From the NCBI GenBank assembly GCA_027593235.1, contig JAQCIU010000026.1, positions 1 to 44,756 on the forward strand: DNA of 44,756 nt. The letters are read 5' to 3'. The notes under the pieces were generated by a model. The model was not told the DNA's origin. It ran no database searches and saw nothing but the letters and a program-made list of their open reading frames with translations. Made by a program: the position numbers and the translations under genes. Within the stretch, counting starts at the first letter, position 1; each line of letters opens with the position of its first letter. This stretch comes from Chloroflexota bacterium (GTDB lineage: Bacteria > Chloroflexota > Dehalococcoidia > UBA2979). Below, piece by piece: positions 3,741 through 44,583 of this stretch.

Positions 3741-4943
3741 ATGAGCGTCCGCATCGGCTTCGGCCTCGCCAACCTGCCCTTCAACAGCGCCCGCGAACTC
3801 TGGCGCTGGGTCGACATGCTCGAGGACGGCGGCGTCGACTCGCTCTGGCAAACAGACCGCCTCATCTCGAAACAGCCGATGCTGGAGTCGATGAGCTTCA
3901 TGGCCGCGCTCGCCGGCCGAACGGAGAAATTGAAGTTCGGCATGAACGTCGTCGTCTTGCCGTTCCGCGATCCGCTCGTCCTCGCCAAGCAGTGCGCCAC
4001 CATCGACTACCTCAGCGGCGGTCGCCTCCTGCCCGCTTTCGGCGTCGGCCGCGCCACGTCGCCCGAATTCGAGGGCGCCGGTCGCTCCGCCAGGGCCCGC
4101 GGCGCCTGGACCGACGAGGTCCTCCAGTTCTTCGCTCGCGTCTGGTCCGAGGACGATGTGACCTTCGAGGGCAAGCACGTCACCTATCGCAACGTCACCA
4201 TCGAGCCGAAGCCGGCACAGGCGCAGCTCCCGATCTGGATCGGGGGAGTTTCCGAGGCGGCAATCCGCCGGACCGCGCTCTACGGCACCGGCTGGTTGAG
4301 CGGCGTTCAGGCGCCCACGCAGATCGCACCCGCGATCAAGGCGATCCGCGAACAGTCCGCCGCGGCCGGCCGGCCGGTCGATGACGATCACTACGGCGCC
4401 GGGTTCAGCTACCGCTTTGGCTCGTGGGACGACCCGATCGTCCAGCGCACCGCCGCCGGTCTGGCCCGTGTCCCGGACGCCGGCGATCCGCGCTCGATGA
4501 TCGCCGTCGGCGACACCAGCGACATCATCGCGAAAGTCCGCGAGTACATGTCCGCCGGCGCATCGAAGTTCGTCGCGCGCCCGCTCGCCGAGACCAGCGC
4601 CGAGGTGTTCGCGCAGACCCAGCGCCTGATCGAGGAAGTGCTCCCCGCGATCCACGGGCTGGACCTCCCGGCCCATCCGCCCACCACAACCCCGATCGGC
4701 ATCGGCCCCAAGAGCCGCGAGATCCTCGAGCGGATCGGCATCACCACGATCGAGCAGGTCGAGGAGCGCGGGCTCGTCGAGACCTATCTCGACGTGCTCG
4801 ATCTCGGTGACACCGGCGCCACCGTCAACTTCCTCTGGGGCCTCGAATCGGCGAGCACCGGGATGCACTGGCTCGAGATTCCCGAGGAGCGCAAGGCCGA
4901 ACTGCGCGGCGAGGTGGAGCGGCTGCGCACACCGCGCGACTAG
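3741..4943 (+). CDS. LLM-class flavin-dependent oxidoreductase with C-terminal TfoX_C-like domain
   Basis: LLM motifs (LAKQCATIDYLSGGRL, PIWIGG..EAAIRR); tail IGPKSREILERIGI...NFLWGLESASTGMHW resembles TfoX_C. Confidence 0.85.
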   Translation: MSVRIGFGLANLPFNSARELWRWVDMLEDGGVDSLWQTDRLISKQPMLESMSFMAALAGRTEKLKFGMNVVVLPFRDPLVLAKQCATIDYLSGGRLLPAFGVGRATSPEFEGAGRSARARGAWTDEVLQFFARVWSEDDVTFEGKHVTYRNVTIEPKPAQAQLPIWIGGVSEAAIRRTALYGTGWLSGVQAPTQIAPAIKAIREQSAAAGRPVDDDHYGAGFSYRFGSWDDPIVQRTAAGLARVPDAGDPRSMIAVGDTSDIIAKVREYMSAGASKFVARPLAETSAEVFAQTQRLIEEVLPAIHGLDLPAHPPTTTPIGIGPKSREILERIGITTIEQVEERGLVETYLDVLDLGDTGATVNFLWGLESASTGMHWLEIPEERKAELRGEVERLRTPRD

Positions 4944-8291: not shown

Positions 8292-8938
8292 CGTCCAGCC
8301 GCTTCGAGTTCGTGATCTTCGATTGCGACGGCGTGCTCATCGATAGCGAAACGATCGCCCTCCCCGTCCTCGGCACGATGCTCGCGGAACTTGGCGTGCA
8401 CCTCGATGTTCCCGAGGTCCATCGCCGCTTCGGTGGCCTCTCGATCGCGCAGGTCATGGCTGCCGTCGCCGACACCCTCGGCACGATACCCCCCGAAACA
8501 TTCGAGGCCGATCTGGCGCGCCGTTGGGAGGACGCCCTCCGCACCGAACTCGTCCCGATCCCCGGCGTCACCGCCGTCCTCGAGGGCCTGCGACTCCCCT
8601 TCTGTACCGCCTCGAACGCCGAGTCGCACGAAGTCCGGTTCAACCTCGATGTGGTCGGGCTGCGGCACCACTTTGGCGACCGCATCTTCGCCGCCACCGA
8701 CGTCGCGCACCCGAAGCCGGCGCCTGACCTCTATCTGCTCGCCGCACGCACGTACGGCGTCGACCCCGCGCGCTGCGCGGTCATCGAGGACACGCCGACC
8801 GGCGCCGCCGCCGGAGCCGCGGCCGGCATGCACGTCTTCGGCTACTCAACCCGCCACCCCGAGGATCTGCTCCGTGCCGCTGGCGCCCGCGACATCTTCC
8901 GCCCCATGGACGAGCTGCTCCCGCTCCTCCACGCTTAG
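8288..8938 (+). CDS. HAD-IA family hydrolase/phosphatase
   Basis: FDCDGVLIDSE, KPAPD and VIEDTPTG motifs; GTG start overlaps the upstream TGA. Confidence 0.9.
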   Translation: MTSSRFEFVIFDCDGVLIDSETIALPVLGTMLAELGVHLDVPEVHRRFGGLSIAQVMAAVADTLGTIPPETFEADLARRWEDALRTELVPIPGVTAVLEGLRLPFCTASNAESHEVRFNLDVVGLRHHFGDRIFAATDVAHPKPAPDLYLLAARTYGVDPARCAVIEDTPTGAAAGAAAGMHVFGYSTRHPEDLLRAAGARDIFRPMDELLPLLHA

Positions 8939-35162: not shown

Positions 35163-35456
35163 CTAGGTCAGCGCGTTCGATCCGAAGGGCCGCGAGAAGT
35201 CCCGCAGCCGCCGTTCGTTGCGGCTGTACTCCGCCGACATGATCGCGTCGCGGGAATCCGTGCGCGCCAGCTTCACCATCCGCTCGAACTCCGCGAGGTT
35301 CCCGTTCGCCACGAACAACACGCAACGCGCGATCCGCGCGTGCTCGCGCGTTGCGGACGCGAGGCCCTCGAGGGCTGCGATCACCTCGGTCTGTCGATCG
35401 GCCGGCAAGTCCCGCTCGACCCGCGCGAGGATGTCGGCCGGGAGTGTTGCGGTCAT
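35163..35456 (-). CDS. Hypothetical protein (97 aa)
   Basis: MTATLPAD... start overlaps the MFS stop (ATGA); D.RD.I..AE segment. Confidence 0.65.
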   Translation of the reverse strand: MTATLPADILARVERDLPADRQTEVIAALEGLASATREHARIARCVLFVANGNLAEFERMVKLARTDSRDAIMSAEYSRNERRLRDFSRPFGSNALT

Positions 35457-36667
35457 CGTGCCACCGTCGGACGGGCCGGCCGCCGGTCCGTGCGAGCGAC
35501 GCCAACGGCGTAGATCGCAATCCCGACAAACGGAAGGAAACCCATCAGCACGAAGCCGAACGAATACGAAGTCGCGTCGATTATGAACCCCAGGATCACC
35601 CCGCCGATCACTGCACCCACGTCCCACGCCATCGTGTAAGTCGCCATCGCCGCGCCGCGCGCTGCTGACGGCGTGCGATCGACGATCAACGCCATCGTCG
35701 ACACCTGGATCCCGCCGAGCGCCAGCCCGCCGACCCCCGCCGAGATCAGGACCGTCGTCTGCGACTGGGCACTCGCCAGCAGGAACAGCGACAGCCCGGC
35801 GAGCGCGAGCCCCGGCAGGACCACCGTCGTCCGCCCCAGCCGGTCTGCGAGCGTTCCGCTCAGGAATCGCGATCCCAGCAGGAACGCCCCCCATACCGTG
35901 TAGTACAGCCCGGGATTCCCCAGGTCGCGCTCTTCGGAGAACAGCGGCAGGAACGCGCCAACCGCTCCGACCGTCGTCGTCACCGTGCAGAACACGATCG
36001 CCGGGATCAGCGCGTGCTTCGATACCCATTCCCGCTGTCGCCACGCGATCGGTGGCCCGGGGACCGGTGGCTCCAGGTCGCGCACCATCGCGCCGACCAC
36101 GAACCCCAGCCCCGCCGCCGCCGCGCCCACGAAGAACGCCATCTCGAACGAAGCCTGCCTCGCAATCCAGACCGACAACGGCGCGGCGTAGAGCTGCGCG
36201 ATCGCGTTTCCGCTCTGGTACAGCCCGATCCCGACGCCCCGCCGCTCAATGGGGATCAGGCTCGCCACCATCGCCAGCAACGCCGTCGTGAACATCCCCA
36301 TCGCGATCCCGTGGATCGCCCGAAAGATCAGCATGATCCACGGATCGAGGCTCAGCCCGTAGCCGACGAACGCCACCGCCGTCGCCGCGCCACCGATCTT
36401 CAGCCACTTCTCGCGCGCGCTGCTGTCCACCCACACGCCGATCAGCGGCCGCGTGAACATCCCCGCGAATCCGAGGGCGCCAACGACAATCCCCACCACC
36501 CAGTCCGCCTCGTTCGACAGCGAACTCGGCACGTTCACGACCGAGATCCCGTACGAGACGAAGTACAGGTGGATCGCCAGCGTTGCGAGGGCAAACTGCA
36601 TGCTGCGCAAGCTCGGCCCGCCCGGCTGGCGCCCGGCCGTCGCGATCTGCAGCGGAGAGTGCGTCAT
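35453..36667 (-). CDS. MFS transporter
   Basis: RPLIGVWVD, GTLADRLGR, about 12 TM segments; start MTHSP inferred. Confidence 0.88.
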   Translation of the reverse strand: MTHSPLQIATAGRQPGGPSLRSMQFALATLAIHLYFVSYGISVVNVPSSLSNEADWVVGIVVGALGFAGMFTRPLIGVWVDSSAREKWLKIGGAATAVAFVGYGLSLDPWIMLIFRAIHGIAMGMFTTALLAMVASLIPIERRGVGIGLYQSGNAIAQLYAAPLSVWIARQASFEMAFFVGAAAAGLGFVVGAMVRDLEPPVPGPPIAWRQREWVSKHALIPAIVFCTVTTTVGAVGAFLPLFSEERDLGNPGLYYTVWGAFLLGSRFLSGTLADRLGRTTVVLPGLALAGLSLFLLASAQSQTTVLISAGVGGLALGGIQVSTMALIVDRTPSAARGAAMATYTMAWDVGAVIGGVILGFIIDATSYSFGFVLMGFLPFVGIAIYAVGVARTDRRPARPTVAR

Positions 36668-36825
36668 CTGCCAGCCTGTCGGGTTGTCCGAGGACAGCGT
36701 AGCGACGGAGCGTACGCCCCCGTCGACCCGCGCGCACCGTCCGTCCGATCCGTCAGCCGCCGTGCTCACCCGCGAGGGTGCGCGTCACCACTGCGCACCG
36801 CGATCGCGCACCGCGGCGCCGCGTC

Positions 36826-38487
36826 CTAGGCGACGTACGCGCGCCACCACGTCTCCAGGCCGACCACTCGCCAGAGCGGACTGGCCAGGTACGGCAGGTG
36901 CGCGATGTCCGTGCGCACCGCCTCGGCGAGCCGGTCGTAGTCCGCGAGGACTGCATCTCGATCGAGCAGTCCGGCCGCTGCCAGGTGCGACGTTTCCAGT
37001 TGTTCCCGCACCCACGGGTGCTGCAAATGCTGCGCATAGCGGTAGTCGAAGTGCACCTTCCCGCGGCGCGCCAGCAGCTCCGAGGGCAGTCGAGACCCAA
37101 ACGCCTCGCGCTGCAGCCAGCGCGCGTCGTCACCCCGGTGGCGCATCGAATCCGGGATCCCCAGCGCCAGCTCGATCAGCCCGACGTCGAAGAACGGCAT
37201 CCTGAACTCGACGTCCGACACGCGCGAACGACTCGCATCGATCGATCGCCCCACCGCGAGCTTCGCCGAGGTGAAGTACTCCGCTCGTTCGCGCCCCGTG
37301 GCGTGGATCCCCGGCAGGCTGCGCGGCGGCACAAGCCGCGTGCCGAGCAACCGCCGCGCGGCCGCCGGAACGTACGCAGGTACCCGGCGTCGAGCGCGAA
37401 TCCCTCGCGTACCGACAGGATCGAGGTCGCTCAGACGCCCGCGCAGCTCGCGTCGGATCCCCCGTCCCCCCTGCAGCCCCCACCAGCGACCGATCGTCCG
37501 CCAGCGTCGCTGCAGCACCAGCTCCTCGATCCCCCAGCGGATCGGCGCGAACAGCTCGTCGCCCCCCACGCCATCAATCGCGATGTGAATGCCCTCGCGG
37601 CCAAGCGCTCGGTACAGCTCGTCGGTCTCCGGCGCCGCGACGTGCACCGGCATCGCCGCCGAGGTGATACGGGCGACATAAGCGTCAACGTCGAACGGCT
37701 GCGGTTCCACCACCAGCGGTTTCAGCCCGGTGAAACGGAGCACCGCCTCCTGGTACGCCGTCTCGTCCGAGGGCAACCTCGGGTACCGCAGCGAAGCGGC
37801 CACCGCCGGTTGTGGGAGCGTCTCATCCGCCGTGATCCAGCCCGCCAGCGTCGAGGAGTCCAGCCCGCCACTGAGCAGCAGCGCGTACGGCTCCGCCGGG
37901 AGATGCCGTCGCAGCGCGCCCGACAGTTCGGGCCGCAGCCGGCCGAGCCACGTCTCCGCGTCCGCGCGATTATCGAGCTGCGCCACCGGCTGCCAGTAGC
38001 GCCGCAACTGCGCGCCGCCCGCGTCCACCACCAGCCGGTGACCGGCCGGTACCGTCCGGACCCCCTCGAACAGCGTCTCCAGCGGATCGCTGAACGACCA
38101 CGCGATCCACTCCAGCACCCGCGGGAGATGCGGCGCCGCCGGCGTCCCCAGCTCCGCGAGGAGGAGCCGCAGATCGGATGCCACAATCGTCTCGTTGGCC
38201 TGTCGCGCCCAGTAGAGCGGCACATCGCCGAGCTGGTCGACCGCCGCTTCCAGACGACTGCCGTCGGTGCTGCGGCGCACCACCGCCCAGGCGCCCGTCG
38301 CCTCTCGGAGCGCCGACGGCGTCAGCGCGCGTGGATCGCCCGCCGACGCCCAGCCGAGCATCGCACTATCGAGGTCCGTCGCTCCGCTGCCGCCGACCAG
38401 CCGCACCGACGCCCGCCCCGCGGCGAACCGTCCGAGAATCTCCACGCCACGCTCGCGGCCGGGAACGGGTGGCGCTCCGGCCGTCAT
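36826..38487 (-). CDS. Lasso peptide cyclase (asparagine synthetase-like C protein)
   Basis: LLSGGLDSS PP-loop, DGVGGDELF, RMPFFD; no N-terminal Ntn Cys; clustered with RRE and B2 genes. Confidence 0.85.
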   Translation of the reverse strand: MTAGAPPVPGRERGVEILGRFAAGRASVRLVGGSGATDLDSAMLGWASAGDPRALTPSALREATGAWAVVRRSTDGSRLEAAVDQLGDVPLYWARQANETIVASDLRLLLAELGTPAAPHLPRVLEWIAWSFSDPLETLFEGVRTVPAGHRLVVDAGGAQLRRYWQPVAQLDNRADAETWLGRLRPELSGALRRHLPAEPYALLLSGGLDSSTLAGWITADETLPQPAVAASLRYPRLPSDETAYQEAVLRFTGLKPLVVEPQPFDVDAYVARITSAAMPVHVAAPETDELYRALGREGIHIAIDGVGGDELFAPIRWGIEELVLQRRWRTIGRWWGLQGGRGIRRELRGRLSDLDPVGTRGIRARRRVPAYVPAAARRLLGTRLVPPRSLPGIHATGRERAEYFTSAKLAVGRSIDASRSRVSDVEFRMPFFDVGLIELALGIPDSMRHRGDDARWLQREAFGSRLPSELLARRGKVHFDYRYAQHLQHPWVREQLETSHLAAAGLLDRDAVLADYDRLAEAVRTDIAHLPYLASPLWRVVGLETWWRAYVA

Positions 38488-38493
38488 CGCGGA

Positions 38494-39360
38494 CTACGCC
38501 TGCGTCGGTATACGCACGGCGTCGTCGACCGCTTCCAGCACTGCGTCGAGCATCCGCGGGTCACGCGGGTACTCGAGTCGGAACACCGGCAGCCACGCCG
38601 CCAGCGACGATGCCAGATCCAGGTAACGGATCGCCGAGGCAGGCGGCCCCGGCGGTGCGAAGAACGACCGCGCGATCACGTCCGTTGATTCCGCCGCGCC
38701 GCAGCGCGCCACCCGCACCGCGGCTCCGTCGCCAACGCGATCGATCGCGAACAACGCGAGGACGGGCCGCGCTCCCGAGGCCAGTCGAATCCCCTCCGCG
38801 TCCGCGTCAATCCGGCGCTTGCCGGTCAGCGTCACCACCTCGCCCGCCTGCACCGAGGGCAGCAGGTCCGTCGCGTGTTCCGCATGCAGACGCAACGTCG
38901 TAATCGACCCGATCCCCTGCCGATCGACCGCGCTGACCAGCACCCCGTCGTCGGCCACCAGCGCCGCGCCCCGCGTCGCCCCGGCAATCGCCAGCGTCGA
39001 CTTGCCACTGCCGCTCGGACCGGTGAACAGCACCGCGCCCGCCCCGCGGTCAATCGCCGAGGCGTGAAGCACCGGCTGGTCCCACGCCGTCAGCGCCGTC
39101 GGCACCGCCACGTCCACCAGCAGGTGTTGAAGGATCGGCGCCGGCATCTCCTGAAGCTGCTGCAGGTGGACATGCCGATCTTCGCTGAACGTCAGCATCG
39201 CTAGGTCGAGCAGTTGGTAGTGCGCCGGGCCCGCCATCGCCTCGCGATCCGTCGTCAGCCGGAACACCGGCGCCGCCGCCCCCGCTCCCGCGATCGGCAG
39301 ATCGAGGTCAGCGGTCGATGCGATCGTCCGCCCGTAGCTCGTGTACAGCCTGACGCTCAT
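38494..39360 (-). CDS. HPr-kinase-like P-loop kinase of lasso cluster
   Basis: VLHASAI, GPSGSGKSTL, LVADD motifs. Confidence 0.82.
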   Translation of the reverse strand: MSVRLYTSYGRTIASTADLDLPIAGAGAAAPVFRLTTDREAMAGPAHYQLLDLAMLTFSEDRHVHLQQLQEMPAPILQHLLVDVAVPTALTAWDQPVLHASAIDRGAGAVLFTGPSGSGKSTLAIAGATRGAALVADDGVLVSAVDRQGIGSITTLRLHAEHATDLLPSVQAGEVVTLTGKRRIDADAEGIRLASGARPVLALFAIDRVGDGAAVRVARCGAAESTDVIARSFFAPPGPPASAIRYLDLASSLAAWLPVFRLEYPRDPRMLDAVLEAVDDAVRIPTQA

Positions 39361-39881
39361 CGGTCAGCGCCCCGCGCGCCCGGCGCGCCCTGAGCACCCC
39401 GAGTGCCGCCCATCACCGACGCCGATCCTTCGAGGGCTGCGAAACGCTCCCGGACATCCGGTCCGTCGTCCACCGCAACTTGATCCACCTCGACCCACGC
39501 ATGCGCCTCGAACGTCGCGCCGTCCCGGCGTGACCCGATCACCACCACCGCATCGACGCCCCGTCGACGCAACAACCACCACAGGAACGTCGCGCGCGCC
39601 AGGCACCCTCGTCGATCCAGACGCAGCGCCGCCGCCACCGTCGCCACCGGTGCCGCGAGCCGTCGCCCGGTCGCCACGCCATCCATCGAGGTCTGGTCGT
39701 GGCGCCCGCTGAGCGGATCGCCCAGCACGCGCCGCACCGCCCGCAACCCGCCGAAGCGAGCCGTCAGGTGCACTGCCGGCAATGCGAACACGGACGCGAC
39801 CGCGATCCGCCGCTGCTCGCCGTCGAAGTCGCCGAAGCGTCGGAAGGCTCTACGCTGGTACGAGGTCAACGAGCCCGGCAT
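39357..39881 (-). CDS. Lasso peptide leader peptidase (B2, transglutaminase-like)
   Basis: CLARA catalytic Cys and FEAHAWVE His motif; start uncertain (ATG 39881). Confidence 0.88.
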   Translation of the reverse strand: MPGSLTSYQRRAFRRFGDFDGEQRRIAVASVFALPAVHLTARFGGLRAVRRVLGDPLSGRHDQTSMDGVATGRRLAAPVATVAAALRLDRRGCLARATFLWWLLRRRGVDAVVVIGSRRDGATFEAHAWVEVDQVAVDDGPDVRERFAALEGSASVMGGTRGAQGAPGARGADR

Positions 39882-40146
39882 CGAGCAGCTCCCGGAGCAG
39901 CACCGCGAGGTCGGCGCGGACGGTCGCCTCGGCTTCCCCGTGCGCCTCCGCCACCTGTGCCGCCACCGCGCTCGGCGACGCACCATCGACGAGCCCGTCG
40001 ATGAACGCCCGCGCCGTGAGGTTCAGCCCGAAATAGGCCTCCGTCTTCAGATCGAGCAAGATCAGCTCGTCGCCGACTTCGCGTCGCAACACGTCCGCGC
40101 CCAGGCGGATTTGTCCCGTCAGTAGTTGATCGTCTGTCACGGACAT
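39850..40146 (-). CDS. PqqD-family RiPP recognition element (lasso B1/E protein)
   Basis: ELILLDL...YFGLN.TA...L..LLDAGLV pattern, 98 aa. Confidence 0.9.
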   Translation of the reverse strand: MSVTDDQLLTGQIRLGADVLRREVGDELILLDLKTEAYFGLNLTARAFIDGLVDGASPSAVAAQVAEAHGEAEATVRADLAVLLRELLDAGLVDLVPA

Positions 40147-40155
40147 GTCCTCTCC

Positions 40156-41091
40156 TCAGACCAACAACGCGTGGGGAGCAATCGGGATCGCGTCTAGGCT
40201 GTTGCCGTTGCGACGCTCGTCCCCGGCGGACACCTGCCACCGCCAGACGTCGCCCGCGTCCAGCCGATCGAACGACAGTTCCACGTTGACCTCGTCGCCT
40301 TCGAGGAGTTGCAGCGGCTCCAGCAGGGGGAGCGTGATCTGCCCGTACGTCGTGTAGCTATCCCCCGGTGCGGAGTCGTAGCTAATCCCCTCGATCAACG
40401 TCGCGTCGAACCAGAGCGCGATCGTGTTGGCCGGGCCATCCGCGAGCGCCCGGAGGATCGTGCTCCCACGCCGCTTACGGCTGCGCAGGTTGTCCGCATC
40501 CGCGTAGTCGATGCTCGTCCAGACCCCCGAGGTCGTCACGATCTGATCCGCTTCGAGCTGCACGCGCCGCGGAACGCTGAGCGCGTGTCGCCGCAACGCA
40601 TCGAAGTCGAGCCCCGGCTCGTCCCACGCCGTCTCCAGCTCCGCGCGGTCGACGTACGCCAGCGCGGCGCGCAGATCGTCGCGCTGCTGCAGCCAGACGC
40701 CCCCCGGAGCCATCACGTCCTCCCGCACGTCCGCGACCACCGACAAACCCGAGGTGTGCAGGGGCAGCGGCCCGCGTAGATCCGCGATCACCACGTTCGG
40801 AGCCTCTGGCAATTCGATCGTTCGGATGTCGCCTCTGAAAGCCTGGATCCGCTCTTCCAGCCCGTTGGCGCGTGCCAACAACGGCACCGCATCCACGGCC
40901 TCCAGCAGATCCACCGCGAACACGCGGCGCGCGCCCAGCCGGGCCGCGACCGCGGCGAAAAATCCCGGTCCCGAGCCGAGATCGAGCACCACGCTATCGG
41001 GACCGACGGTCCGCGTCAGCGCGGCCACATACGCATCGCGTCGGCGGCGATCCCGCAGCATGGTGCTGAAGTGGACCATGTCATAAGGCAT
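40156..41091 (-). CDS. Class I SAM-dependent methyltransferase, PRMT-like
   Basis: H...ML.D..R..AY N-terminal helix, VLDLGSGPG, LWFDATL and SAPG..TTYGQ in the C-terminal beta domain. Confidence 0.8.
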   Translation of the reverse strand: MPYDMVHFSTMLRDRRRRDAYVAALTRTVGPDSVVLDLGSGPGFFAAVAARLGARRVFAVDLLEAVDAVPLLARANGLEERIQAFRGDIRTIELPEAPNVVIADLRGPLPLHTSGLSVVADVREDVMAPGGVWLQQRDDLRAALAYVDRAELETAWDEPGLDFDALRRHALSVPRRVQLEADQIVTTSGVWTSIDYADADNLRSRKRRGSTILRALADGPANTIALWFDATLIEGISYDSAPGDSYTTYGQITLPLLEPLQLLEGDEVNVELSFDRLDAGDVWRWQVSAGDERRNGNSLDAIPIAPHALLV

Positions 41092-41136
41092 TGGCTGATC
41101 ACCCGATCTGCACGATTGAGGGTCGGACTGCGGGGC

Positions 41137-41183
41137 TTAAATAAAGAGCGTTGCAGGGAGGCTCGCCTCCCTGCAACGCTCTT
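41137..41183 (-). terminator. Intrinsic terminator/attenuator between precursor and maturation genes
   Basis: Perfect 18-bp inverted repeat at 41144-41183 running into a TTTATTT tract on the minus strand. Confidence 0.8.
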
Positions 41184-41221
41184 CGAGTCAGGGTTCGCGA
41201 TCCGCGAGGGACCGCGACTGA

Positions 41222-41362
41222 CTAGTCGTCGCTCTTGCCAAGGATGTCGAAGTCGTTGGCCATGCCAACTGCCTTCTCGTTGCCGTCGTTGCCATACCCG
41301 CTCTTCGCGGAGGTCAGGTCAGCGAGCAGGCCAAGTCGCGTAACGGTCGGTCGTTCGTACAA
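41222..41362 (-). CDS. Lasso peptide precursor (46 aa): leader MYERPTVTRLGLLADLTS, core AKSGYGNDGNEKAVGMANDFDILGKSDD
   Basis: Manual translation; TTG start after AAAGGCGGGGA; leader fits YxxPx(L/V)xxxGxxxxxTx; core has Ala1 and Asp8. Confidence 0.88.
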   Translation of the reverse strand: MYERPTVTRLGLLADLTSAKSGYGNDGNEKAVGMANDFDILGKSDD

Positions 41363-41411: not shown

Positions 41412-41516
41412 TGCTCTGTGATCCCAGTGTGATCCGCAATAACCGGTAACCTAATTGACTGTCAAAAGACTGATGGATCACACACTAATCTGTCAGGCGA
41501 TCCTGCTCTGTGATTT
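41412..41516. promoter_or_regulatory. AT-richer promoter region with repeated TGTGAT(C/T)(C/T) boxes upstream of the precursor
   Basis: TGTGATCC at 41417 and 41428, inverted copy at 41475-41482, TGTGATTT at 41509; palindrome TTGAC-T-GTCAA at 41455-41465. Confidence 0.5.
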
Positions 41517-41672
41517 CACTGCCCCACGAACGAGCCGGCTGGACCGCTGAATCGACGAGCATCCTGACCTGTGCGATTGAGCTCCGCGTTCTCGCTCCGC
41601 CGGCTCCGCCCTCGCCGTCAACGGCCGCCGTCGGCCATCGCCGTCTCCGGCCACCTCTGCTGGCCGCGCCGC

Positions 41673-43232
41673 CTACTCCACGAGGGCGCGCACCACGGCG
41701 GAGCGCACCGCCGTCACCTGCGCGCCGAAGCTCGCGAGGATCCGGCTCCCCCCGCCGTCGGATCGTGCGACGCCGATCAGCAGGTGCGCCGAGTCGATCT
41801 CGCCGCTCTCCAGCTCCCGCGCCTCCGCTGCCGCGAACTCGATCGCCCGCTTCGCCTCATCGGTCAGTCCGCGCACCGCGCCCGCGTTGTCGTCACGTCG
41901 GCCGGCGCGCCCGATCGCCCCCTCGACTGCCGCGATCTCCACCCCCAGCGCCTTCAGCGCCCGCGCCGCGGGACCGTCGTTGGGACGCGCGATCGCCAGC
42001 AGCATCGATTCGGTGCCAATCGGGCCACCGCGTCGTCGCGCCTCCGCGTCGGCCTGCGTTAGCGCCGCGCGCGCCCGCCCGGTGAACCTGTCGAACCGGT
42101 CGGGCGATCCAGTCGGCCGCGACATCGTAGTGTGGCCGTTCCGCGGATCCAGCATCCGTATCGTCTGCCCCGACTCCGATGCCGCCCGCACCGCATCCAG
42201 GATCTCCTGACACGCCACCGCGTCGTCGAAGTTCGGCGCCGGCGAGCTGCCCTCGCGGATCCCCCGCTCGAACTCCCGCACCAGCAACCGGAACGAGGCC
42301 AGCCGGTCGTCGCGGTTGTCCACGATCGGCACATATCGAGGATCGACCGGTAGCTCCTCGAGCCGGCGGTCCTCGGCCCCGCCCGCGCGCACCACGCCGT
42401 CCGGCTCCGGGTTCGGCCCCCGCTGCGTCGCCACCAGCACGCCCCTCGACCCCGCGATCGTGATCCGCGCGCCCAGGCTCGGCGCGACGAGCGACGAGGC
42501 AGTCATCGAGGCGACGACGCCGTTCTCGAACAACAGCGTCACCGCGAACGAGTCGTCGGTGTCCGCTTCGCGTGGGTTGCCGTCGGCGTCCATCCGCGCG
42601 GGCATGCGCGTCGTCAGCCGGCCACTCACCTCCGCGACATTGCCGAACCAGTGCCGTAGCCCGTCGATGTAGTGCGATCCCAGCGCGCCAAGCAGCCCGC
42701 CCCCCTGCGCCTTGTCCGAGGCCCAGCTGAACGGCGGCGGCGAATCCGGCCGCGGCCGTCCCATCAGCAGCTCCGCCGACACCAACTCCGGCTTCCCGAT
42801 CCGCCCGCCGTCCAGCAGGTCCTTGATCTGCGCCCGCTGCGGCGCAAACCGGAACTCATGCGCCACCATCGCGGTCAGCCCCTGCTCGCGAGCCAGATCG
42901 CGCATCGCCCGCGCCTCGACCCCGTTGAGGGCGAACGGCTTCTCGCAGAGCACGTGCTTCCCCGCTCGCAGCGCCGCCATCACCATCTCGCGGTGCGCCG
43001 CCGGCGGCGTCGTCACCGCGACCGCATCGAGGTCGTCGCGCGCGACGAGGTCCTGCCAGTCCTCGGCCACCCCGGCGATACCCAACTCGGCGGCCTTGCC
43101 GGCGGCAATCGCCTGGCGGCGGCCCCAGACGACCGGCACCTCCCAGCCCTCGGCGAGGAAGGCGGGCACGTGCACCCGCGCGCCGAACCCGACGCCGATC
43201 ACGCCGATGCGCAGCGGTTGGTTCGCGGTCAT
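41673..43232 (-). CDS. Gfo/Idh/MocA oxidoreductase fused to a C-terminal Clp N-terminal (double Clp-R) domain
   Basis: GVIGVGFG, HVLCEKP, GSHYID; tail FDRFTGRARAAL...IGTESMLL...LTDEAKRAIE...HLLIG. Confidence 0.82.
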   Translation of the reverse strand: MTANQPLRIGVIGVGFGARVHVPAFLAEGWEVPVVWGRRQAIAAGKAAELGIAGVAEDWQDLVARDDLDAVAVTTPPAAHREMVMAALRAGKHVLCEKPFALNGVEARAMRDLAREQGLTAMVAHEFRFAPQRAQIKDLLDGGRIGKPELVSAELLMGRPRPDSPPPFSWASDKAQGGGLLGALGSHYIDGLRHWFGNVAEVSGRLTTRMPARMDADGNPREADTDDSFAVTLLFENGVVASMTASSLVAPSLGARITIAGSRGVLVATQRGPNPEPDGVVRAGGAEDRRLEELPVDPRYVPIVDNRDDRLASFRLLVREFERGIREGSSPAPNFDDAVACQEILDAVRAASESGQTIRMLDPRNGHTTMSRPTGSPDRFDRFTGRARAALTQADAEARRRGGPIGTESMLLAIARPNDGPAARALKALGVEIAAVEGAIGRAGRRDDNAGAVRGLTDEAKRAIEFAAAEARELESGEIDSAHLLIGVARSDGGGSRILASFGAQVTAVRSAVVRALVE

Positions 43233-43299
43233 CGCGGCCTCCGGTGGATGATGGGACTCGCCGGTGTGTGGGCGGTGAGCATACTCGCGCCGCGCAAGC

Positions 43300-44583
43300 C
43301 TATCCGGCCCCGGCGACACCGTCGGTGTCCTCCGGAGGATCCACCACGATCCCCAGCTCCGGGTCCCGCAGCTCCGCGTCCTGCGCCACGATCCCACCAA
43401 CCGCGACCGCACAGGCGATCGCCCCCAGCACCACCGCCAACGGCGCACCAAACGCCGCCGCCAGCGCACCGCTCAGCGTGAAGCCCAGCGGTGGACCGCC
43501 GCCCGCCAGCATGCTGCGGAACGCCTCCACCCGCCCACGCAGCGCGTCCGGCGAGATCGCCAGGATCGCCGAGTTCCTCGGAATCATCTGGATCACATTC
43601 GTCGCGCCTAGCAATGCTCCCGCCACCAGACTCAGTCCGAACCAGGGCGACGCCGCAAGCAGCACCAGCGACAGCGCGTAACCCAGAACCCCGAACACCG
43701 TATAGAGCCCCTTGTGGCGGACGTCGCCCAGCGACAGCATCGCCGTCGCCGCAATCATGCTGCCCACCCCCGGCGCGGCGCTCAGCAGCCCGAACCCCGT
43801 CGCGCCCACCCCCAGCGAGTCCGCGAAGATCGGCAGCAACGCCCGGTAGCTGCCAAGCACCGTCGCCGCCAGATCCAGCATCAGCAGCGACACGATCACC
43901 CGCCGCTGCCGCACGAACGCGAGACCCTCCAGGAAGCTCCGCCACGGGCTGTCCGTCGTCGCCTCCGGCGTCGACGGTGTCCGGATCCCGACGATCGCCA
44001 CCATCGCTGCGAGGTAGATCGCCCCGTTCAGCAGGTACGTGGTCCCCAGGTCAAACATCCCGACCACGATCCCGCCGAGCGCCGGCCCGATGATCTGCGA
44101 GGTCTGGCCGATCGTCGCGTTCAGCGCGACGGCATTCACCAGGTTGCGCCGCGGGATCAAGCTCGGAATCAACGCCGTCCGCGCTGGCTGAGTCACGGCG
44201 CTGAACGACGCGTTGAGGAACGTGATCGCATAGAGGTGCCACAGCGAGACCGCGCCCGTCAGCGTCAGCCCCGCAAGCGCGAGGATCAGCACGCCGTTCG
44301 CGATCTGCCCCGCCTGGATCAACCGCACCCGGTTGAACCGATCGGCGAACACCCCGCCCACCATCGACAGCACCATGTGCGGCAGCGCCCGCGCCAACCC
44401 CGTCAGCCCCAGCAGCAGCGCGTCGCCGGTCAGCTCATAGACCTGCCAGAAGATCGCCGTCTGCAGCAGTTGCACGCCCAGCGATGTGAGCAGCAGCGAG
44501 CCAGCGAAACGCCGGTAGTCGCGATAGGCGAGCGCCGCTACGGCGACGCGTAGCCCTCTTTCCCCGGCCTGGCTCCGCGCCAT
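43300..44583 (-). CDS. MFS transporter (EntS/DHA3-like)
   Basis: ALAYRDYRRF, GGVFADRFNR, PARTALIP, ALRGRV. Confidence 0.88.
   Translation of the reverse strand: MARSQAGERGLRVAVAALAYRDYRRFAGSLLLTSLGVQLLQTAIFWQVYELTGDALLLGLTGLARALPHMVLSMVGGVFADRFNRVRLIQAGQIANGVLILALAGLTLTGAVSLWHLYAITFLNASFSAVTQPARTALIPSLIPRRNLVNAVALNATIGQTSQIIGPALGGIVVGMFDLGTTYLLNGAIYLAAMVAIVGIRTPSTPEATTDSPWRSFLEGLAFVRQRRVIVSLLMLDLAATVLGSYRALLPIFADSLGVGATGFGLLSAAPGVGSMIAATAMLSLGDVRHKGLYTVFGVLGYALSLVLLAASPWFGLSLVAGALLGATNVIQMIPRNSAILAISPDALRGRVEAFRSMLAGGGPPLGFTLSGALAAAFGAPLAVVLGAIACAVAVGGIVAQDAELRDPELGIVVDPPEDTDGVAGAG

Follow-up and report, generated by a model that had tools for sequence, protein, structure and literature searches.

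Which modifications would a lasso peptide receive from a gene cluster that pairs a peptide kinase with a methyltransferase of the protein arginine methyltransferase (PRMT) fold? This question is raised by positions 36,826 to 41,362 in a stretch of 44,756 nucleotides (contig JAQCIU010000026.1 of assembly GCA_027593235.1), which originates from an uncultured Chloroflexota bacterium of the Dehalococcoidia and is called the window below. Judged by its genes, the window contains an intact class II-type lasso peptide gene cluster with split B1 and B2 proteins, for which a threaded and cyclised product is predicted. We regard it as reasonably probable that this cluster is a functional operon, with the order precursor gene (A), hairpin, methyltransferase (M), B1, B2, kinase (K) and cyclase (C), and that K and M tailor the peptide close to its C-terminal end, as proposed below.

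The gene cluster

The six genes of the cluster are the following:

41222..41362, minus strand: precursor gene A, encoding 46 amino acids, with a predicted 18-residue leader MYERPTVTRLGLLADLTS and a 28-residue core AKSGYGNDGNEKAVGMANDFDILGKSDD
40156..41091, minus strand: M, S-adenosylmethionine (SAM)-dependent methyltransferase with a type I PRMT fold (Rossmann domain and beta-barrel)
39850..40146, minus strand: B1, PqqD-like recognition element (RRE) for peptides made by ribosomes and modified after translation (RiPPs), matching PF05402 with 41.1 bits (cut-off 23.4)
39357..39881, minus strand: B2, transglutaminase-like leader peptidase of 174 amino acids when read from the ATG at 39881; the longest open reading frame (ORF) extends to 39986
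38494..39360, minus strand: K, peptide kinase resembling HprK, with H99-G114-G117-G119-K120-S121-D137-D138 as its motif
36826..38487, minus strand: C, asparagine-synthetase-like lasso cyclase, matching PF00733 (E = 9.6e-37), with the PP-loop SGGLDS

When read along the minus strand (41362..36826), the precursor gene is followed by a strong hairpin and then by M, B1, B2, K and C, with every frame intact. All six genes, including the small precursor ORF, run head to tail, and the enzyme genes are tightly packed: M and B1 are 9 nt apart, B1 and B2 overlap, B2 and K share 4 nt (ATGA) and K and C are separated by 6 nt. The same order and packing had been reported in an initial annotation of the window, and all seven elements indeed lie on the minus strand. 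The claim of that annotation that this is a complete lasso cluster with two tailoring enzymes is likewise backed by the family matches, motifs and relatives described here.

The core enzymes can be assigned from their domains. B1 additionally matches the NCBIfam model NF033530 with 50 bits, under the cut-off of 70. For B2, the ATG at 39881 is the likely start, with GGGAG located 8 nt 5' of it. The protein matches both PF13471 (Transglut_core3; 69.8 bits, cut-off 26) and the lasso B2 model NF033537 (66.6 bits, cut-off 33), and a Cys...His...Asp set could be picked out by eye in GCLARA...EAHAWVEVDQVAVDD. It is also the sole PF13471 match in the genome from which the window derives. The cyclase matches the NCBIfam lasso/macrolactam cyclase models, but under their cut-offs.

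The precursor peptide and its family

The precursor gene starts with a TTG codon, with a purine-rich GGCGGGG (Shine-Dalgarno sequence) just 5' of it and no earlier in-frame start. A protein identical over all 46 residues was already present in the protein collection (P0001). According to the available text of PMC10368454, the start of a lasso core is set by the leader rule Y(-17)xxP(-14)xL(-12)...T(-2). The leader MYERPTVTRLGLLADLTS contains Y(-17), P(-14), V(-12), G(-8) and T(-2), where Tyr, Pro, Val and Thr correspond to Y2, P5, V7 and T17 of the ORF. Val thus takes the place of Leu at -12, and the YxxPxL/Thr(-2) pattern is otherwise present. With Tyr at -17, the core AKSGYGNDGNEKAVGMANDFDILGKSDD would begin at Ala and place Asp at position 8, which is the only acidic residue at core positions 7-9. 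A YxxP...G...T(-2) leader and a 28-residue core with an Ala1-Asp8 ring had both been proposed in the initial annotation; each position of that leader is found in the 46-residue ORF, and the proposed core is the one that follows from the Y(-17) rule (PMC10368454).

The precursor belongs to a family of seven distinct sequences: P0001 from the window, P0002-P0004 from the database, one from the same-genus genome G001 (loci L011/L013) and two from metagenome contigs (L044 and L046). The GNDGN motif, an aromatic residue (Phe/Tyr) at position 20 and a C-terminal GKS(D/N)D are invariant in all seven, which includes the Ser (Ser26 in the window) and Lys25 of the latter motif. The ring Asp is present in every member as well; in P0004 it stands at position 7, one residue being absent before GND, and the ring of this peptide would be 7-membered. 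Thr(-2) is found in five members. Ser3 is found in three, including the window, and is replaced in the others by R, P or P, or falls in a shifted register. The cluster is more than a chance arrangement: there are six further distinct precursors in the family, the gene set recurs in a same-genus genome and a contig of another assembly spans 36700..40895. No second precursor copy was found above noise in the window. When the core motifs GYGNDGN, GPKTG, YHKPEV and LGKSDD were searched in the literature, only chance matches to GPKTG were returned.

The kinase and its target serine

K matches the HprK families of Pfam and NCBIfam under their cut-offs, and its assignment relies on the catalytic motif. 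In the lasso kinase BsfK, the residues H148, G163, K169, S170, D186 and D187 matter for catalysis and their mutation cuts activity (PMC10368454, available text). The motif residues of K and their spacing equal those of BsfK between H148 and D187, the two enzymes being compared by motif only. Among 18 aligned kinases of related clusters, the residues H99, G114, G119, K120, S121 and D138 do not vary. The strict pattern ending in DD occurs in 16 of 49 complete K ORFs, and most of the others that were read show ED at this position. By this comparison, K carries the complete catalytic motif of the proven lasso kinases.

Two kinds of target are described for these kinases in the available parts of the literature. 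Kinases of the paeninodin type need a C-terminal Ser (PMC9266682, PMC8498205), while BsfK phosphorylates Ser3 of a substrate that also ends in Asp (PMC10368454). The precursor of the window ends in ...GKSDD and hence lacks the C-terminal Ser of the paeninodin type. A Ser at core position 3, the target of the BsfK type, is present in the window, yet in only three of the seven family members. Ser26 is therefore favoured over Ser3, as the former is invariant and the latter variable. It could still be that K acts like BsfK on Ser3, inside the future ring, and that GKSDD serves for target binding or for recognition by M. The precedent of a BsfK substrate with the same C-terminal Asp (PMC10368454) and the Ser3 of the window core speak for this alternative, but besides its patchy occurrence in the family, a Ser or Thr at position 3 was found in only 6 of 48 cores from other clusters with K and M (see below), and we consider it unlikely. 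Phosphorylation of Ser26 remains the preferred reading. A predicted complex of K with M obtained a score of 0.00; it gave no answer and says nothing either way.

The methyltransferase

Pfam and NCBIfam return for M only generic SAM-methyltransferase families and a weak match to PRMT_C. The relationship becomes clear when M is compared together with its relatives: a profile built from them matches PRMT6, PRMT8, PRMT1, PRMT2, PRMT3 and CARM1 in the PDB over both the Rossmann and the barrel domain, with E values of 1e-45 to 1e-54. The top match is PRMT6 (E = 1.3e-54, profile positions 4-273). The same fold was obtained from an AlphaFold (AF2) model of M, with a predicted local distance difference test score (pLDDT) of 90.8 and a predicted template modelling score (pTM) of 0.87. 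The top Foldseek matches of this model are all PRMTs, with template modelling (TM) scores of 0.80-0.85 (PRMT6/PRMT1). The SAM-binding motif I is present as VVLDLGSGPG.

Arginine methylation is defined by the double-E loop, in which two Glu residues hold the guanidinium group, and by the THW loop. Both have changed in M. The double-E loop SEWMGYGLLHES of PRMT6 aligns to ADLRGPLPLHTS in M (SEWMG...HES versus ADLRG...HTS), where the first Glu corresponds to Asp104 and the second to Thr113. In the THW loop, THWKQ aligns to TTYGQ of M. The Arg106 of the altered loop is nearly invariant (15 of 16 aligned relatives), and the pattern D[LIVM]RG was found in 47 of 66 complete M ORFs; this pattern is crude, and the 19 others are pattern misses rather than proven absences.

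Two types of methyltransferase are known from lasso clusters, the StspM/LasF type and the protein isoaspartate methyltransferase (PIMT) type. Neither Methyltransf_2 nor PCMT was found for M in Pfam at E <= 0.01, and the NCBIfam PIMT model gave 15.5 bits against a cut-off of 188. By these family comparisons, M belongs to neither type. A literature search, which did not cover some lasso cluster catalogues, returned no publication on a PRMT-fold enzyme in lasso clusters or on the combination of K and M.

Some relatives of M are longer (~380 amino acids) and possess a C-terminal extension, absent from M of the window, that was compared to the B1/PqqD profile (E = 9.5e-4, probability 22%); a resemblance to B1/PqqD is suggestive, not established. 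By contrast with M, a bacterial PRMT-like protein of 359 residues that looks canonical, with an intact double-E-like loop (EQMG..EE) and THW loop, is encoded in a same-family genome (G019; L012, 6477-7556), where it has no lasso context.

The kinase and methyltransferase pair in other lasso clusters

Relatives of M are widespread. A word-based search returned 9 close orthologues with identities of 60-98%, a further 19 proteins with 32-38% identity, among them several labelled arginine methyltransferase by their sources, and 1 partial sequence. In an exhaustive search, 465 representatives of clusters formed at 50% identity were found at E <= 1e-30. Gene neighbourhoods were compared at 84 loci with a relative of M, comprising 4 of 31 loci from the genome scan (L013-L016) and the 80 loci kept from a metagenome scan, out of 179 relatives. 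The loci L017-L043 were excluded, their match being confined to the SAM-binding part with E >= 5e-7. Neighbouring genes were called by tblastn at E <= 1e-4. The loci are partly near-duplicate (L080/L081 and L118/L119), and the relatives are not independent.

Across all 84 loci, K was found in 56 and at least one of K, B1, B2 and C in 67. Of the 60 loci that extend at least 900 nt upstream of M, 38 carry K on the same strand no more than 400 nt upstream, and 49 carry it anywhere. Of the loci of 5 kb or more (39), 33 contain K, 31 C, 26 B1 and 12 B2. Four of these 39 contain none of the four genes (L053, L084, L109 and L111), and in L053 and L109 M lies at most ~420 nt from the end of the piece. 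The locus L052 (4071-10955) was read completely and shows the order B1, C, A, K, M, ATP-binding cassette (ABC) transporter and NTP_transf_5; no B2 was detected in its 14.8 kb by tblastn or Pfam. The ABC transporter and the nucleotidyltransferase of this relative are missing from the cluster of the window. From these neighbourhoods, the K-M pair is seen to recur as a conserved module in lasso clusters of many precursor families, and the cluster of the window appears as a small, stripped-down member of this widespread kinase and PRMT-fold subfamily.

What do the precursors of these clusters have in common? By applying the strict -17 spacing, 48 distinct leader/core pairs were gathered, of which ~2 look like chance and over half come from one family (NxGxKGNxDGGGG..GPKTG). 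Thr(-2) is present in 43 of the 48 leaders. A Ser or Thr stands within the last six residues of 45 cores, and in 35 cores this segment contains [KR][ST]. Any Arg is found in 15 cores, and the first residue is Asn in 27. In the clusters L047-L116, the predicted first core residue is often Asn, Lys or Gln, and the ring Asp mostly stands before Gly-Gly or Asn-Gly. These three amino acids are unusual as the first residue of a lasso core.

Only a hydroxyl residue for the kinase, the ring Asp (Gly or Asn often comes next) and carboxylates are common to all precursors of the K-M clusters, and for this reason the acceptor of M is not readable from the sequence. Two chemistries can be put forward at roughly equal odds, the remainder being left to something else: N-methylation of a basic residue beside the phosphorylation site, or O-methylation of an anion, either phosphate or carboxylate.

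In the first case, M would have kept the ancestral PRMT chemistry and would act on a basic side chain (Lys25, Lys2 or Lys12 in the window, Arg or Lys elsewhere), for which the phosphate would be a neighbouring recognition feature or unrelated. The PRMT fold itself, the acidic D104 kept at the first Glu of the double-E loop, the presence of Lys25 in all seven family members and the [KR][ST] motif of 35 cores agree with this proposal. However, the second Glu and the His and Trp of the THW loop are gone, and the core of the window contains no Arg. The 35 cores are moreover dominated by one family; [KR][ST] near the C-terminus occurs in only 4 of 12 precursor families delimited by eye, and the core of one K-M cluster (L014) contains neither Lys nor Arg. 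As a stand-alone account, N-methylation of a basic residue is thus possible, albeit doubtful.

In the second case, the methyl group would be placed on an anionic oxygen, either of the phosphate set by K, yielding a methyl phosphodiester, or of a carboxylate (C-terminus, Asp27 or Asp28), and Arg106 would bind the anion. DLRG with its nearly invariant Arg106 replaces E-W-M-G in M, and K and M are co-inherited in many precursor families among which no basic residue is common. A precedent in lasso peptides exists as well, in the form of C-terminal carboxylate methylation in lassomycin and by StspM, according to the available text of reviews. The D104 beside the acceptor site would nevertheless repel an anion. 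To our knowledge, no PRMT-fold enzyme is known for O-methylation, which also counts against this alternative, and we hold it to be rather doubtful. Its most specific form is a two-step module in which K phosphorylates a Ser or Thr near the C-terminus of the tail and M, with an Asp-x-Arg loop in place of the Glu pair, methylates that phosphate. This is quite unlikely; if true, ribosomal peptides would gain a modification not known from them, the methyl phosphodiester, and the PRMT fold would gain a new chemistry.

Loss of the leader peptidase in sister lineages

The same-genus genome G001 has A, M, B1, K and C, their proteins being 67-73% identical to those of the window, and the layout and matches of L013 are those of G001. 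In this genome K directly follows B1 with no B2 between them (L011, 8638-8960), and the whole genome, which is 89% complete, gave no match to PF13471/Transglut_core3. Its leader ends in Gln-Gly in place of Thr-Ser. An identical junction of B1 and K is found on contig L045 (1250-1514). Over 136 amino acids, L046 (444-581) and L045 share 95% identity in M, and the leader of L046 ends in Gly-Gly. Thr(-2) is kept in both clusters that possess B2 (window and L044). B2 and Thr(-2) have thus been lost together in two sister lineages, as is expected if B2 reads Thr(-2). These sisters offer a natural experiment on leader removal without a dedicated peptidase. A C39 peptidase or ABC gene was considered as a substitute leader protease in G001 and rejected, since no such gene adjoins the cluster; a sulfatase, an oxidoreductase, a KAP NTPase and unknown proteins are encoded next to it.

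Two further observations concern this region. The B1 gene of G001 shifts frame at a run of G (L011, ~8781-8783), which may reflect a fault of the assembly or a genuine frameshift. Short contigs of low depth in X1 and X3, the two best DNA runs, align to 39841..39820 and to 39378..39354 with only 2 letters in between, as though B2 were skipped; they may come from a B2-less relative in the same samples, which is only a hint given matching sides of less than 30 nt.

Sequence conservation

In a run of another study, one contig covers 36700..40895 with a single difference; this is a possible source run and therefore not fully independent. A related strain, from a run of a further study, shows 4-29 differences per piece of ~350-740 nt, with no indels listed. 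Of the listed differences, 22 of 26 in C and 10 of 13 in M are at third codon positions, which makes 32 of 39 for the two genes together; the count covers a subset, as 40 of the 124 differences are listed. This third-position bias without listed indels fits purifying selection.

These data bear on the possibility that the cluster is silent or decaying, or that its product is an unthreaded branched-cyclic peptide. Sister lineages have indeed lost B2, and the related bsf cluster gave no mature peptide in the laboratory, as stated in the available text of PMC10368454. In the window, however, all six reading frames are unbroken and coupled in translation, no catalytic motif is incomplete and the differences in the related strain are mostly at third positions. 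Silence, decay or an unthreaded product is accordingly improbable, and a functional operon is the reading retained below.

Possible control of transcription

Two non-coding features surround the precursor gene:

41412..41521, minus strand: putative upstream control region of A, AT-richer, with a perfect TTGACA (41465..41460) and repeated TGTGATCC boxes
41143..41223, minus strand: two stem-loops directly 3' of the precursor stop

The TGTGATCC boxes are present as direct copies at 41417-41424 and 41428-41435 and as an inverted copy at 41475-41483. They are accompanied by an 18-nt direct repeat (41412-41429 and 41504-41521) whose copies are 83% alike. Promoter and operator roles are suggested for this region, and the boxes together with the 18-nt repeat would form a possible operator array. 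The precursor gene of G001 is likewise preceded by TTGACA.

The pair of stem-loops folds at -59.4 kcal/mol (z -8.65), and none of 200 shuffled sequences was as stable. In the second stem-loop (41184..41143), a GC-rich stem of 19 bp runs into UUUAUUU. It likely serves as an attenuator or a terminator that separates A from the enzyme genes.

Proposed biosynthetic pathway

From the gene content, motifs and folds, and from the conserved gene set and K-M pairing, we infer the following chemical steps, with their sites and order. The hairpin after A would attenuate read-through, by which the precursor would be produced in excess over the enzymes. B1 would bind the YxxPxV leader and make the linear precursor available to the enzymes that tailor and process it, as expected from its family; such leader binding and presentation was shown for BsfB1 (PMC10368454, available text). 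K would then phosphorylate a Ser of the linear precursor with ATP, most likely Ser26 in GKSDD, with Ser3 as the alternative. M, which lacks the arginine-binding second Glu and the THW loop, would methylate the same peptide, probably at or beside the phosphorylation site, since M and K are inherited as a pair. The peptide would then be both phosphorylated and methylated. Subsequently, B2 would cut after Thr(-2)-Ser(-1), and C would link the Ala1 amine with the Asp8 side chain, by which the acidic tail of 20 residues would become trapped. Met16 and Phe/Tyr20, both conserved, are the likely plugs.

Several findings weigh against this pathway. There is no precedent for a kinase target Ser located three residues from the C-terminus, the proven targets in the available parts of the sources being a C-terminal Ser or Ser3. 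In the 12 precursor families delimited by eye, a Ser or Thr is present within the last six residues in 10, and as about half would be expected to show this by chance, the trend is a weak one. The small number of families with [KR][ST] and the L014 core devoid of Lys and Arg, both described above, count in the same direction. A simple promoter scan returned no full -35/-10 match near the precursor, and a simple terminator scan returned 0 sites and did not flag the second stem-loop. In the comparison with G001, no exporter or immunity gene was found to be conserved with the cluster. Lastly, the majority of curated family models are not reached: K, the NCBIfam cyclase models and the NCBIfam lasso PqqD model all remain under their cut-offs.

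Genomic surroundings

Transporter genes of the major facilitator superfamily (MFS) lie on either side of the cluster:

35453..36769, minus strand: MFS transporter, MFS_1 (E = 6e-46), downstream on the same strand as the cluster; its membership in the cluster is doubtful
43300..44583: second MFS gene near the cluster

The downstream MFS gene had been put forward in the initial annotation as the only export candidate. The gene is there, but it is not the sole candidate with two MFS genes nearby, and a role in export is unsupported. Neither MFS gene has a counterpart flanking the cluster in G001, and the downstream gene was rejected as a cluster member.

The genome assembly comprises 3.39 Mb in 78 contigs and is ~90% complete; the G+C content of the window is 68%. 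The remaining genes of the window belong to ordinary metabolism and regulation. Two of its frames have an unusual composition. At 41673-43469 (minus strand), one open frame fuses a GFO/IDH/MocA oxidoreductase (residues 86-437) with two Clp_N repeats (residues 462-595), an odd pairing. At 3741-4943 (plus strand), a single ORF consists of a luciferase-like monooxygenase domain followed by a TfoX C-terminal domain.

Significance

Few tailoring reactions of lasso peptides are described in the available reviews. The company that a PRMT-fold enzyme keeps with a peptide kinase, over hundreds of sequence clusters, indicates a modification not yet described; most of the inspected loci with a relative of M are lasso clusters. 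The window contains a minimal version with six genes in ~4.5 kb, free of transporter and nucleotidyltransferase, which makes it a convenient construct for probing the K-M pair and a good lead for genome mining. In a literature search, no publication on lasso peptides from Dehalococcoidia was found, the co-mentions being off topic; a lasso peptide from this cluster would come from a class for which that search returned no characterised example.

Comparison with known systems

Among characterised systems, the bsf cluster of Bradymonas sediminis FA350 (BsfA/B1/B2/C/D/K/N; PMC10368454) comes closest. As far as the available text of this source describes it, the two clusters have in common the split B1 and B2, the motif of the HprK-like kinase, a precursor that ends in Asp, Ser3, the YxxPxL leader and the Asp8 ring. 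The bsf cluster differs by Ile(-2), Gly1, an ABC transporter, a nucleotidyltransferase and the absence of a methyltransferase. In contrast, the cluster of the window has Thr(-2), Ala1 and a PRMT-fold methyltransferase, it contains no D or N gene, and Ser3 is not conserved in its precursor family.

In the paeninodin type (PadeK, ThcoK, SyanK and PsmK; PMC9266682, PMC8498205), a homologue of HPr kinase is encoded in the lasso cluster and acts on the linear precursor before leader removal, as is proposed for the window. In the available parts of these sources, a C-terminal Ser is needed and no methyltransferase is described, whereas the precursor of the window ends in Ser-Asp-Asp.

SAM-dependent methyltransferases are found in the lassomycin type (LasF and StspM), which forms C-terminal methyl esters, and in the PIMT type (cellulonodin-2 and lihuanodin), which leads to aspartimide. 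In the available descriptions, StspM is modelled on mitomycin 7-O-methyltransferase and the others are homologues of PIMT; M shares with them the location in a lasso cluster and belongs to a different family. The modifications of lasso peptides described in the available parts of PMC9266682, PMC8498205 and PMC13352647 comprise the C-terminal methyl ester, the aspartimide formed by PIMT, phosphorylation, glycosylation, acetylation, hydroxylation, epimerisation, deimination, prenylation and a second isopeptide; a PRMT-fold enzyme is not among them.

The enzymes closest to M are the eukaryotic type I PRMTs (PRMT6, PRMT1, PRMT8 and CARM1). They share the whole fold, the N-terminal helix MLxDxxRxxxY and the SAM motif VLDLGxGxG. 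Unlike the PRMTs, M carries D104-L-R-G...T113 in the double-E loop and T-T-Y249 in the THW loop, it is encoded in a RiPP operon, and its putative substrate is a peptide without Arg. Measured against all these systems, the novelty of the window is that of a lasso cluster of minimal form, with an undescribed type of tailoring enzyme and an unusual host, rather than that of a new kind of system.

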